Below are positions 13,134-18,960 of a stretch of DNA of 25,521 nucleotides, piece after piece. The position numbers and the translations under genes are program-made. Below the pieces are notes generated by a model, which saw nothing but the letters and a program-made list of their open reading frames with translations, was not told the DNA's origin and made no database searches. The stretch's first letter is position 1; every line of letters begins with the position of its first letter. Source of the DNA: a virus; the UHGV virus genome UHGV-0301809. One strand, written 5' to 3'.

Positions 13134-13589
13134 CTATCTCCCGTGATTCAGGAAGTCGATTAGTTCTTCGCGTGTAGCACTGTAAAATGTCACGTCATCC
13201 ACGCCTTTGAAGTATTTCTTGATGGTTCCGACACGCTTAAGGCCAATCATTGCGCAGTACATCTGACCGTGGCGGAATTTGCGCGCAGCGAACGATGTGA
13301 CGCACTGAACGGTGGTGTTAGTCAGAATGTATCGCCAGAACGCCAGCCCGATTTCCTTGCTGAATCCACGAACCTCTGGCAGGTACATGGCGTGGCAATC
13401 GAATGTAAGCGGCTGAATTTCCTGATAGTAAACAATGCCGCCAAACTGACCGTACACGTTAACCTCAAAGTAACGGCATTCAGGCTTGTAGTCGTATCCA
13501 TCACCGTTGTTGCTTCCGGCAATAATGTCAGGGTGATTTCCGACAGCTTCGATCAGGTCGATGTTTCGCGTTGGTTTGAACTGAATCAT
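13134..13589 (-). CDS. gp14-like protein (position of P22 gene 14)
   Basis: 151 aa ORF between tail needle and gp7 homologs; assignment by synteny only. Confidence 0.5.
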   Translation of the reverse strand: MIQFKPTRNIDLIEAVGNHPDIIAGSNNGDGYDYKPECRYFEVNVYGQFGGIVYYQEIQPLTFDCHAMYLPEVRGFSKEIGLAFWRYILTNTTVQCVTSFAARKFRHGQMYCAMIGLKRVGTIKKYFKGVDDVTFYSATREELIDFLNHGR

Positions 13590-14542
13590 TACTGCTCCGC
13601 GATTATCTTGATGGTTGTGGCAGTAAACGCCGCACCATTTGACTGAATGGTTAACGTGCTGCCATTTGTGGCAAGAAAGCCGTCTTTATCCACGCTGAAG
13701 AACGTAGCTAACAGGATGTTATCGGTCGTTGTCGCCGAGTTGCGACTGCTTACCAGTGTGTCAGGAACAGAGCCGGAAAATGTTAGTTGCATTGACCTGT
13801 TGGCGGTTCCGCTGGGCCACGTCCCGACGATCGACAGCTTGAAGAACAAGGTTTTGTTCTCGTTGAACACAACCATCTTGTTGTTAACGGTGTCGAAGAA
13901 TGGTGCCAGCGTGCCGGATGACGGCGTGAGCGTTTTCAGCAGACTAACAAGGTTGGTAGGCGCTGTCGGAATTGTTACCGATACCCCTGAGTAAACAACC
14001 TCTGATTTCTTGCGCGTGGTGGCATACTCAAGCGCAGATATTCTTGTTGAGTGATCACCAGCTGTGCTTTGTAGCGTCGAAATACTTCCCTCTGCCGCTG
14101 TGAGCCTGGTATCAAGTGCGTTGATATCGGTTGTATTCTGAGTTATTCGCGCATCATGGTTTGCTAACTCAGATTCATTGGCAGCAATTCGCGTCTCGTG
14201 ATCAGCCAGCTCTGTTTCGGCAGCCGTAATCCTTGTTTCATGATCTGCAAGAGTGCTTTCCGCTGCTGCAATTCTATGTTCATGATTGACGAGAGTTGCT
14301 TCAGCAGCTTCAATTCTGGATTCATGGTCTGCAAGGGTGACATCCTGCTCATCATTCTTCACCTGTGCATCATAAGCCCCCTTCCCTGCTTCGTTGGCCT
14401 TGTTAGCCACGTTACCAACATCAGCACCCTGTGCGATAACGTACAGCAGATATGACTGCGAGAAGATATTGCGTGGAAGGACTGATGTGTCGAGTCGTGT
14501 AGCCTGAATGATTACCGGCTCATTGAGATTCGAATCAGCCAT
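13589..14542 (-). CDS. tail needle (P22 gp26-like) with extended C-terminal knob
   Basis: N-terminus [43 protein letters not shown]...[13 protein letters not shown] resembles P22 gp26; long hendecad coiled coil (ADHETRI repeats); 317 aa versus about 233 in P22 implies an added C-terminal domain. Confidence 0.8.
14130..14350 (-). repeat. in-frame tandem repeats of about 33 nt encoding the needle coiled-coil hendecads
   Basis: Repeated LADHE(T/S)RI(A/T)AAE units visible in the translation and as periodic DNA; boundaries approximate. Confidence 0.4.
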
Positions 14543-15960: not shown

Positions 15961-16461
15961 TTATTCGCTCCCGTTATCGCAAGATTCCTTCCGGTGGAAG
16001 TAATTCCAACCGTTCCACTTCGCCAACTGGTTACCGCTACCAACAGGCATACGGTTTGGATAACCGGACTTACATTTAGCGGCTTTTGCTCTGTCCATTG
16101 CAGACAGTTTGACGAGTCGCTCTTTCCCGTATCTGGCAGTGGTTATAAGTTTTGCAGACGCTTCCAGCGCATAATCTGGAGCAATGCGGCAGGCAAGGTT
16201 GAAAATGACGGCATTGATAGCGTTATTTGATAAACCGTGCTCATCGCCCGGATCCGGAGCAACATCTGCATCAGCAAAAATGTAGCCAACGTTGATACCA
16301 GGTGACGCATCACCGCCAAGCCATTCAGCCATCATCATTTCAAGGTCGTTGACGCCGTCTTCCATAGACTGCGGTTCGACATCTGTTAACGTGGCATTTG
16401 ATGCCACACCGAGCTTACGTAATGCCGCAAGGACTAAATCACCCTTCGTTGTCAGGTTCAT
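15961..16461 (-). CDS. tail accessory protein, P22 gp4-like
   Basis: Internal start [33 protein letters not shown]... fits the gp4 family; track N-terminal extension to 16527 rejected. Confidence 0.7.
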
Positions 16462-17032
16462 CTGCTGCCGCCTTAGGTTTTCGACCAGGCTTTTTACGCT
16501 GTTTTTCTTCTGGCTCTGGCTCTGCAATAGCCGGACGCAAACTCAGGAGTCGTCCAAGAACATCATTTGCTTCATGACCATCCCACTCTTTCCCGAACTC
16601 AAGCTCAGTACCTTCAGGAAGGAACTCGATTTCTTCAACAGGTAGGTGATAAGTGATTTCGCCTTCTGGAGTGGTGATACCAGCAATGATCCAGCCATCC
16701 CACTCTTCACCGTCACTGTGTTTGCGAGACCACCACGAAAGCTCAGCGTAAGCATGCATCAGCGATGAGAAGAGGCGCACTCGGTGAGCGTAAAGCTCGT
16801 TAAAAGTGTGATAACCGTCGGACACTTCGCCCATATCAACTGGGGAAGTTTCACCTCCGCCAACACTCCCAATTTGATCACCAACAAGAGGATCATCAGG
16901 AACATCGTCAGGGTGCTTATACCAGCCATTTGCTAAGTGCACAGCTACATCATCAGGATCAACGGTTTTCGTTTTCAGCTTGCGTCCCCAGATTTTGGTA
17001 TCTCCGCCAGCCTGAAAAATCATTACGCTCAT
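16439..17032 (-). CDS. hypothetical acidic protein (about 197 aa) with basic C-terminal tail, between coat and gp4
   Basis: Internal start [10 protein letters not shown]... chosen because the track ORF's upstream part overlaps the coat gene and terminator; C-terminus [11 protein letters not shown] is AT-hook-like; no family recognised. Confidence 0.5.
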
Positions 17033-17042
17033 TGGTATCTCC

Positions 17043-17066
17043 AATAGAAAAGGGAGCCGAAGCTCC
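17043..17066 (-). terminator. rho-independent terminator-like hairpin downstream of coat (UUCG tetraloop)
   Basis: On the minus strand GGGAGC-TTCG-GCTCCC followed by TTTTCTATT; nearly identical stem-loop to the terminator at 3598-3620. Confidence 0.55.
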
Positions 17067-17075
17067 CTCTGGTTA

Positions 17076-18371
17076 TCACGCGGTCTGGTTAGGCAGACCA
17101 ACACCAATTGCCTCTGGTCGTACAGCACATGCTGAATACCACACAGCAATACGGCACTTACCAGACAGAGTGTTGATATCACCCTGCGTTGCGAAGATGC
17201 CGTTAACACCAATACCAGGAATGCTGAAGGAAGACGTTTTCATGCCAGCAAACAGTTCATGGGTTACCGGGATCGGCTGAGACAGCAGACGGATTGAGTC
17301 ATCAGCCCAGAACACGTTAGCGGTGGTTGTTGCCACGTTCAGAACGTTTACCGGAGTGGTATTAGCAAGAGAGGTGTTTACGTTAGCGTAAGCCTTCTCT
17401 TCTTTTGTCAGTGACGCGTCATCCAGTGCAATCGGTTTCGGCGTGATTTCGATGCGAGTACCATCGATCACACGGGTGATTGAGAAAGTCGCATCATCAG
17501 TTAGCACGTTCTTCGCCATCTGAGACAGGAATTTCACACCAGTGAAACTGATTTTGTCGCCGCGCTTAAATTCGGTGGTGGAGGATACGGTCACCGTTGC
17601 AACACGGTTGTCGACGTTCTCTTTGTTACCATCGGTATCAAGGGTGTATGCCTGCGGCTTAAACTTCTGCGCACCAGAAACAGTTACACCAGTAGCGGTT
17701 GACTTGGTAACTGCCGGAAGTTTCGGTGAGCGAAGAATTTCATCAAAGCCAGCAATCTGACGCTGAATAGTACCGTTGCGATATGCTTCTTCAGGAACGC
17801 GCCCGAAGATGTCACCATCTACCAGGTTGCGGCCTGCTTTGCGGTAATCGTCAGGGTTCAGGAAGTAACTGATGCCCATATCGCGGTTTAGCTCACGGGA
17901 GAACATCAGGCGCTCTGCATCAGACACAAAATCCCAGCCAGACAGGCCAGTAGATGGACCAATTGCGCGGGTATCGTGAACAACAAGCGAGCCCATTTCA
18001 GTTGCCTGTTTGGCAATTGCTGACTCAATGTTATTCGCCAGTTTTTTGGCGGATGCCTGGATGCGGCGACGGTAAGAACGCTCATCACGCAGGTCATCTG
18101 CACGAAGCTCGAAGAAATCGTTATCCGGATCGCCCATGTTGCATTTCACGGACAGCTCCAGAATCCCGGTTGCGTTGCCAGTTAAATCCCAGCCAGTCTG
18201 AGTTGGCGCTTCCTGCTCAACAGGCATCCACACGGTGTTGCTTGAACGCTGCATGGATTCTGCCGGAGGGGTGTATTTTGTCACTTTGGACGCCATTGGC
18301 GTCAGGTTCTGGACGGTTTCGATGATTTCATCGATAGCGTAAGTAACTAACTGCCCTTCTTTGAGAGTCAT
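17076..18371 (-). CDS. major capsid (coat) protein, P22 gp5-like
   Basis: 431 aa; [54 protein letters not shown]... closely parallels P22 coat protein as I recall it. Confidence 0.9.
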
Positions 18372-18438: not shown

Positions 18439-18960
18439 ATGAGCATGGAACTGAATGAATACTTCGAATACCGAGATGGTTCTTTGGTTTGGAAAGCCAG
18501 AAGCTCTGAATTTTTCAACAACAAAAAGAATCGCAACTATCACAACGTTTGGAATGCAAAACACGCTGGGAAAGTTGCTGGTCTTTTAGAAAGCAATGGA
18601 TATATCCGCATAAGAATTAACGGCATTAAGTGGCTAGCACACCGCATCGTATGGGTAATGTTTAACGGAGATATTCCAGAAGGCATGGAAATTGACCATA
18701 TAAATGGGATTCGCCACGACAACAGAATTGAAAATCTTCGTCTTGTGAAAAAATCAGCAAACCAAAGGAATAGAATCAAACTATCTAAAAATAACTCCAG
18801 CGGAATATCTGGAGTTTACTTTTGCAACACGCGGAAAAGATGGATCGCTCATAAGCGACTGCTTAATGCAAGAGTGCAAAAAGTATGTTCTTCATTCGAA
18901 GAGGCGAAAGAAGTAATCAGAAAGTTTGACGAGGAAAACAACATCACGATATCGAAATAA
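18439..18960 (+). CDS. HNH homing endonuclease with C-terminal AP2-type domain (copy 2)
   Basis: HNH block AHRIVWVMFNGDIPEGMEIDHINGIRHDNRIENLRLV; AP2-like GISGVYFCNTRKRWIAHKRLLNARVQKVCSSFEEAKEV; AT-rich upstream region with TATA-like elements. Confidence 0.8.
   Translation: MSMELNEYFEYRDGSLVWKARSSEFFNNKKNRNYHNVWNAKHAGKVAGLLESNGYIRIRINGIKWLAHRIVWVMFNGDIPEGMEIDHINGIRHDNRIENLRLVKKSANQRNRIKLSKNNSSGISGVYFCNTRKRWIAHKRLLNARVQKVCSSFEEAKEVIRKFDEENNITISK

Follow-up and report, generated by a model that had tools for sequence, protein, structure and literature searches.

In UHGV virus genome UHGV-0301809, a stretch of 25,521 nucleotides (nt) of viral DNA (hereafter the window), an open reading frame (ORF) for a 197-residue protein lies between the gene of a P22-type coat protein and that of a homologue of the head-tail adaptor gp4. 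Our analysis shows that this ORF is almost certainly the long form of a known accessory gene family residing between the coat terminator and gene 4. The family is already catalogued, as an uncharacterised one, in P22-like phages. The long form carries in addition a WDGH domain (Pfam PF25311), for which we tentatively suggest a counter-defence role.

A preliminary description of this DNA, made from the sequence alone, had called an ORF of about 197 codons at 16439-17032, starting MSVMIFQ, had placed it between a coat hairpin and gp4 and had described its product as an acidic, Trp-rich protein of unknown function; all of this was borne out (Table 1). The protein has an isoelectric point (pI) of 4.68, with 39 Asp and Glu residues vs. 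20 Lys and Arg residues, and five of its seven Trp residues fall within the WDGH domain. WDGH was the sole Pfam domain recognised (E = 1.3e-39; 134.8 bits vs. a cut-off of 27), the match spanning profile positions 1-97 of 97 and residues 68-165, with the eponymous W150-D151-G152-H153 and the conserved S-D-G-Y-H-T-F, H-R, W-W-S and Y-H-L-P blocks all present. Among the PHROGs, phrog_3769 matched the full length of the protein (E = 4e-101) and phrog_1175 matched residues 1-44 (E = 1.9e-14); a function is assigned to neither, and the published homologues are no better understood, orf186 of phage L being listed with its "detailed function unknown" (PMC8022706). In a comparison of the gene with an 80%-identical metagenomic homologue by the Nei-Gojobori method, the ratio of nonsynonymous to synonymous substitution rates (dN/dS) was 0.13 for the whole gene, 0.05 for WDGH, 0.15 for the N-terminal domain (N-domain) and 0.1-0.4 for the tail, where few sites contribute, pointing to purifying selection on all three parts. 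Taken with the Pfam and PHROG matches, the whole-gene ratio argues that the ORF lies far beyond chance.

Comparative genomics of the coat-gp4 interval revealed that the slot is filled in P22, Sf6, HK620, L, epsilon34 and phages of the IME10/Louie types. The preliminary description had taken the slot to be empty in P22 and the whole gene to be an insertion. Neither claim held, as the P22 record carries a short homologue, orf69, at 6135-6344, after the stem-loop and overlapping gene 4, and relative to such short forms only WDGH is extra. (An "orf69" encountered in an Stx2-phage paper is an unrelated ORF69, not the P22 gene.) Short homologues of 61 residues each, gene 6 of Sf6 and hkbT of HK620, occupy the same slot, and the phages whose genomes come closest to that of the window (Louie, Dewey, APC_JM3.2, IME10 and HZ41) have an ORF of 82-88 residues there. 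Orf186 of phage L and gene 6 of epsilon34 likewise sit precisely between coat terminator and gene 4. In the epsilon34 genome paper, the P22 gene was described as a version of the long form with an internal deletion, and the P22 short form as non-essential (PMC2629481).

An alignment of long and short forms showed two elements common to all members, an N-domain of about 45 residues (M..M-I/L-F/Y ... G-W-x-x-H-P) and, at the C-terminus, a K/R-G-R-K-P-K patch followed by acidic residues. Between them, the long forms carry WDGH, while the short forms of the IME10 type carry an (EP)n repeat. P22 orf69, Sf6 gene 6, HK620 hkbT and the ORFs of IME10, APC_JM3.2 and Louie (phrog_1175) thus share with the window gene the slot, the N-domain, the tail and the overlap with gene 4, but lack WDGH, their linker being short or an (EP)n repeat; in the IME10-type short form, the tail is identical to that of the window protein. 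Conversely, orf186 of ST64T and L, epsilon34 gene 6 and ST104 ORF54 (PHROG 3769) resemble the window gene in the slot and in the entire N-domain/WDGH/basic tail layout. They represent another allele, however. In the window, the tail and the flanking genes belong to the E. coli IME10/Louie type, not to that of Salmonella. A tblastn search of 50,697 phage records returned a full-length homologue in 39, nearly all of them Salmonella P22-like phages (ST104 ORF54, SE1, L and ST64T type) with about 62% identity to the window protein over residues 1-167; the closest sequenced phage isolate in the collection reached at most 63% identity. A profile search with the N-domain gave only near-identical short forms among the best 120 matches listed.

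The linker of the short slot proteins (P0252-P0371; L003 2109-2159, L002 3039-3335) is hypervariable, the proteins ranging from 74 to 98 residues in two-residue steps, which suggests slippage of a 6-base-pair (bp) repeat. Read in the gp4 frame, (EP)n becomes (SQ)n, and Louie gp4 is for this reason annotated with a 29-residue N-terminal extension (195 residues in total).

To describe the layout of the protein, we modelled it with AlphaFold2 from a 121-sequence alignment (mean predicted local distance difference test score [pLDDT] 78.8). The N-domain (residues 1-44) was predicted with a pLDDT of about 80 and WDGH (residues 68-165) as a confident α/β domain, while the linker (residues 48-62) and the tail (residues 166-197) appeared disordered. 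Conservation followed these divisions, with mean identities to the window protein among 50 family members of 80% for WDGH, 54% for the N-domain, 57% for the tail and 28% for the linker. Comparison of the predicted fold with solved structures revealed no relative, and searches of the PDB by sequence (phmmer) and by profile gave no significant match; a weak PDB match to PARG (E = 1.2) was dismissed as noise. A scan of the protein against NCBIfam likewise gave no match, and none of the PADLOC defence-system models matched it at E ≤ 1. Two candidate enzyme classes were considered and rejected: 2H phosphoesterases, since the two H-T motifs are located ahead of helices and not within central strands, as well as because of the small size of the domain, and HEPN proteins with their Rx6H motif, since H93 is not conserved.

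WDGH itself extends far beyond this family. When 1.84 billion cluster representatives (50% identity) were searched with a profile, 4,420 matched at E ≤ 1e-3 and 1,095 at E ≤ 1e-30, most of them proteins of 110-350 residues, and the domain of the E. coli prophage type seen in the window retains 45-50% identity to those of Listeria, Bacillus and Streptococcus phages. D72, G73, H75, Y81, H83, R84 and S102 were invariant in 121 sequences, and the corresponding columns were near-invariant in 131 diverse representatives; S71, E79, W100, H105, D107, Y128, H129, W150, D151, H153, D157 and R161 were near-invariant in both sets. This tally, which includes five His, four Asp, two Arg, two Tyr and two Trp residues, suggests that the conserved positions line a ligand-binding or catalytic pocket. 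Full-length WDGH domains with all conserved residues are also found in gp128 of Listeria phage P100 and in proteins of Klebsiella phage LASTA and Lactococcus phage P092. Unlike the window protein, other WDGH proteins stand alone or have different flanking sequences, and they are mostly encoded in early or accessory regions.

A subset of WDGH proteins is fused to, or encoded beside, domains linked to anti-defence functions. A Serratia prophage protein (P0101) combines a Tad2-like domain, WDGH and Sequestin; WDGH-Sequestin fusions were seen in P0077, P0082 and P0107 as well as in three of the 131 representatives, fusions to the restriction-alleviation domain Lar in three of 131, and a fusion to DUF551 in one of 131 and in a BFVD match. 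In one Pavtok-like temperate phage contig (L014), a WDGH-Sequestin gene lies directly 3' of a Tad2-like gene; in a second (L017), a stand-alone WDGH gene adjoins an Acb2/Tad1-hairpin gene in an early operon that also holds a Tad2-Sequestin fusion. Tad2 is known to sponge Thoeris signals. Sequestin (PF21825) is a sponge for 3' cyclic ADP-ribose (3'cADPR) that was itself identified through its fusion to Tad2 and Acb4 (bioRxiv 10.1101/2025.07.12.664507). Tad2 (PF11195), Sequestin and Acb2/Tad1 (PF24729) resemble WDGH as short, widespread phage accessory domains found fused or adjacent to it; they have no homology to WDGH, however, and are known sponges, whereas WDGH is at most a putative one. The remaining contexts of WDGH genes were different or gave no hint of function: the early region of Erwinia phage Pavtok, the vicinity of a NADAR gene in a Bacillus phage, unannotated early operons and, in a pneumococcal siphophage, a place within the head module with the portal gene on one side and a minor capsid gene on the other. 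When 20 long WDGH proteins were scanned with Pfam, no informative partner beyond a coiled coil emerged.

Two side observations concern these partner domains. In the Pavtok-like contigs (L017 3031-7846, L014 6071-7870), the early operon from the repressor region to the integrase resembles an anti-defence island, comprising the Tad2-Sequestin fusion, WDGH, the Acb2/Tad1-hairpin gene and many small unannotated genes that may include further candidates. The window itself encodes, at 2030-2626 (+), an Ead/Ea22-like early protein with a C-terminal DUF551, the domain that is fused to WDGH elsewhere.

The long form present in the window recurs in E. coli. Protein cluster P0001 (195 residues, 98% identity) comprises 1,929 member sequences from this species, and the same DNA is present at 99% identity in 42 of 5,426 complete E. 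coli genomes, where PGAP names the product "hypothetical protein" or "WDGH domain-containing protein"; in ~175 other complete E. coli genomes, the flanks alone are shared with the window. Full-length relatives at 55-80% identity were found in Pantoea, Cronobacter, Serratia, Xenorhabdus, Erwinia, Hafnia and Klebsiella, and in the two loci that were checked, those of the metagenomic and the Pantoea homologues, the gene order was portal-scaffold-coat-X-gp4-gp10. In an E. coli match (H135) and at two other loci (L012 8001-8560, L013 8001-8363), the coat-gp4 slot holds the WDGH gene as two separate ORFs, each matching PF25311; these split genes, from Salmonella and E. coli prophages, look frameshifted and are possibly decaying.

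Comparison with Louie, APC_JM3.2 and IME10 indicated how the window allele may have arisen. On both sides of the ORF, the window is 97-99% identical to Louie and APC_JM3.2, while a segment between blastn break points at 16525 and 17037 differs from all three phages. One joint lies in the spacer between the ribosome-binding site and the ATG, the other in the EP-repeat codons of the linker, and from residue 170 on the tail is encoded by the backbone and does not differ from that of the 88-residue APC_JM3.2 protein. Given these break points, the N-domain and WDGH arrived as a cassette, and the window allele is a recombinant in which this segment was swapped into an IME10/Louie-type backbone supplying the tail. 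Moreover, two N-domain subtypes exist and each of them is found with and without WDGH; the domain has therefore been gained, lost or exchanged more than once.

The same comparison bears on the C-terminal tail, with which, according to the preliminary description, the protein ends in the manner of a basic AT-hook. A basic patch is indeed present at residues 177-187, but it is followed by an acidic end of 10 residues, and the patch does not qualify as an AT-hook: the core G-R-P is absent from the window protein (K-K-P-G-R-K-P-K), and Pfam AT_hook (PF02178) gave no match at E ≤ 1. A G-R-P core was found in only two of 50 family members, and some relatives lack glycine in this region altogether. 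With the AT-hook, the tail shares the character of a short disordered peptide rich in Lys, Arg, Pro and Gly; it differs in having G-R-K-P in place of the core and in that its motif partly doubles as the gp4 ribosome-binding site. The codons for P-K-A, CCT AAG GCG G, lie 9 nt 5' of the gp4 ATG and show no nucleotide change between the window, L, epsilon34 and P22, the sequence persisting as TAAGGCGG in Sf6; most simply, this sequence would be the gp4 Shine-Dalgarno element. The adjoining R-K-K-P-G-R-K differs from its phage L counterpart by four synonymous changes and one replacement, and since the differences are mostly synonymous, the basic patch looks constrained as protein as well. Over the tail, the DNA of APC_JM3.2 and Louie matches that of the window at almost every base, and the DNA in which the tail lies is 98% identical in phages of the IME10/Louie type with a short form; the basic tail is thus not specific to the window protein.

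Based on these results, we tentatively suggest that the ORF encodes a non-essential, non-structural accessory protein of the late operon, of which WDGH is the working part, acting in counter-defence on a nucleotide-derived immune signal. Its expression would be that of the late operon, alongside the head proteins. WDGH might bind or cleave a nucleotide-derived immune signal, most likely one of the Thoeris or CBASS type, using the pocket of near-invariant His, Asp, Arg, Tyr and Trp residues, while the N-domain and the basic tail would represent an older scaffold common to the family, possibly serving oligomerisation or nucleic-acid tethering. Capsid proteins have been reported as triggers of TIR and CBASS systems; if they trigger defences here, co-expression right after the coat gene could be timely. 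The broader proposal, that WDGH constitutes a new, very widespread phage counter-defence family, an enzyme or sponge acting on TIR- or CD-NTase-type signals that P22-like phages plugged into the linker of an old late-operon scaffold, its synthesis thereby coinciding with that of the capsid proteins that set off such defences, is slightly more speculative. The preliminary description had raised the possibility of an injected anti-defence factor; the anti-defence part finds circumstantial support in domain fusions and gene neighbourhoods, while nothing supports injection.

Several observations weigh against a counter-defence function. Fusions are few (about 4% of ~250 cluster representatives examined), and most WDGH fusion partners are unrecognisable to Pfam. 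Those neighbourhoods that are informative belong to related temperate phages of the Pavtok-like kind and hence are not independent. In the window protein, Pfam detected no Tad2, Sequestin or Acb domain, and the fold has no solved relative from which a pocket or an active site could be read. The genes of known sponges are mostly early ones, whereas the window gene is located in the late operon past a terminator. Furthermore, the slot mostly holds short forms lacking WDGH, and the core function of the family therefore cannot be that of WDGH. Literature searches for "WDGH" or "PF25311" found nothing, and the Sequestin paper and its supplements do not mention WDGH. Because fusions are rare, the neighbourhoods stem from related phages and expression is late, we hold the counter-defence assignment to be no more than tentative.

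In all P22-like phages examined, the gene directly follows the coat terminator and its translation overlaps that of gp4; this invariant position could instead reflect a role in head assembly or packaging, for instance as a non-essential chaperone for docking of terminase to the procapsid or for loading of gp4 onto the portal, with the linker and WDGH being dispensable. In λ, the equivalent slot, following the major capsid gene and preceding the head-completion genes (coat E, then FI, then head-completion FII), holds the packaging chaperone FI, a non-structural protein with a flexible linker, and two ends joined by such a linker recall gpFI; the WDGH gene of the pneumococcal siphophage is situated in a head module as well. 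However, similarity to gpFI was not detectable (hhalign probability 0.05%; BLASTP E = 12), and the predicted fold of the N-domain differs. In addition, most WDGH genes reside in early or accessory regions rather than in head modules, and we know of no P22 assembly defect that maps to the coat-gp4 slot. As the P22 gene is, moreover, non-essential in the laboratory (PMC2629481), we consider an assembly role unlikely. Another possibility is that the gene acts mainly through its translation, as a coupling leader bringing ribosomes past the terminator to the gp4 start, the Lys-rich tail being a by-product of an A-rich initiation region and WDGH a passenger. The stop/start overlap of 17-26 nt with gp4 in all relatives, the preservation of the P-K-A codons at the nucleotide level even in Sf6 (TAAGGCGG) and the free drift of the (EP)n linker length would all be expected of such a leader. 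Yet the dN/dS values of the N-domain and of WDGH bespeak selection on the protein sequence itself, the mostly synonymous divergence of the basic patch from phage L argues in the same direction, and coupling alone would not keep a folded 45-residue domain across Escherichia, Salmonella, Pantoea, Serratia and Xenorhabdus; a mere leader function is thus improbable.

A DNA-directed protein, in which the tail would serve as an AT-hook-like minor-groove anchor tethering an acidic WDGH domain (an enzyme or DNA mimic, perhaps with an anti-restriction function), would be consistent with the basic cluster kept across the family (median of five Lys and Arg per 10-residue window), the true RGRP core in two of 50 members, the Lar fusions and the strongly acidic nature of WDGH (pI 4.5). 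Nevertheless, with G-R-K-P rather than G-R-P and no AT_hook match in the window protein, with several family members lacking Gly or most of the basic residues, with a motif partly fixed by the gp4 Shine-Dalgarno element and with WDGH proteins of other phages lacking such a tail, this explanation appears quite improbable. Least probable, to a degree that we regard it as very unlikely, is a virion component, be it a decoration, internal or injected protein, for which only the location in the morphogenetic operon speaks. To our knowledge, the slot protein is not among the P22 virion proteins, and it showed no similarity to any solved virion protein by PDB sequence, profile or structure comparison. 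The P22 short form, as mentioned, is non-essential (PMC2629481). Epsilon34 encodes the long form, and on sodium dodecyl sulfate (SDS) gels its virions differ from those of P22 only in gp13, the tailspike and the 15-kDa Dec, with no band of ~21 kDa reported; Dec, the decoration protein of these phages, is encoded elsewhere (PMC2629481). The earlier suggestion of a decoration or internal virion protein is therefore disfavoured.

The coordinates of the ORF, its parts and its immediate surroundings are collected in Table 1. The hairpin downstream of the coat gene starts six bases beyond the coat stop codon (17076-17078) and was confirmed by RNA folding (-18.3 kcal/mol; z = -3.2 vs. shuffles), while a scan for consensus terminators did not pick it up; at the equivalent position, terminators are annotated in phages L, Sf6 and HK620. 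At its other end, the ORF shares 23 nt with the start of gp4.

Table 1. Coordinates of the slot gene, its predicted parts and adjacent features in the window
Feature	Position	Strand	Remarks
gp4 (head-tail adaptor) homologue, 166 residues	15961-16461	-	ATG at 16461; 99% identity with Louie gp4
ORF (coding sequence), 197-residue protein	16439-17032	-	stop codon included; ATG 17032-17030, stop 16441-16439; N-terminus MSVMIFQ
Disordered C-terminal tail, residues 166-197	16442-16537	-	EP remnant, basic patch and acidic end; pLDDT <50
TAAGG, likely gp4 Shine-Dalgarno element	16471-16475	-	embedded in tail codons P186-K187-A188
Basic patch, residues 177-187	16472-16504	-	only loosely AT-hook-like
Mosaic segment differing from Louie, APC_JM3.2 and IME10	16525-17037		blastn break points, two-piece megablast matches
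WDGH domain, residues 68-165	16538-16831	-	Pfam PF25311; pLDDT ~95
Acidic disordered linker, residues 46-67	16832-16897	-	pLDDT <50 at residues 48-62; family mean identity 28%
N-terminal domain, residues 1-45	16898-17032	-	β-hairpin and helix, ends in G-W-x-x-H-P motif; common to all short forms
GGAG, ribosome-binding site of the ORF	17039-17042	-	7 nt 5' of the ATG of the ORF
Terminator-like hairpin 3' of coat gene	17049-17070	-	9-bp stem, UUCG loop, then U-tract
P22-type coat protein gene	17076-18371	-	directly upstream of the ORF in the late operon

Elsewhere in the window, an ORF for a 173-residue HNH_3 homing endonuclease (18439-18960 [+]; Pfam PF13392, E = 4e-22) is inserted in antisense orientation between the scaffold gene (18961-19872 [-]) and the coat gene; the insertion is also seen in Louie and is absent from APC_JM3.2, L and P22, in which scaffold and coat genes abut. 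A λ-type integrase ORF (3873-4751 [+]) encodes only 292 residues, and because the Phage_integrase match covers positions 2-96 of 172 and stops there, the C-terminal catalytic half appears to be missing. It is followed by a hexapeptide acetyltransferase gene (4982-5653), whose product probably modifies O-antigen, and by the tailspike gene (5673-8048 [-]). The homologue of the tail needle gp26 (13589-14542 [-]; 317 residues) is a long coiled coil of near-repeats with an Sf6-type knob (PF16532, E = 9e-108), unlike the tip of the P22 needle.

As a sequence feature, the ORF is ordinary: a hypothetical gene that is already catalogued in P22-like prophages and occurs in thousands of Enterobacterales genomes. 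It is of value because it draws attention to WDGH, a domain with about 4,400 cluster representatives that is unusually conserved from Listeria phages to E. coli prophages, and the useful outcome is a concrete and cheaply testable hypothesis for this domain, reached by the same fusion-based reasoning that recently uncovered Sequestin. Should WDGH indeed act in counter-defence, a large family would be added to the anti-immunity repertoire of phages, and a long-unexplained variable gene of the classic P22 morphogenetic operon would be accounted for.

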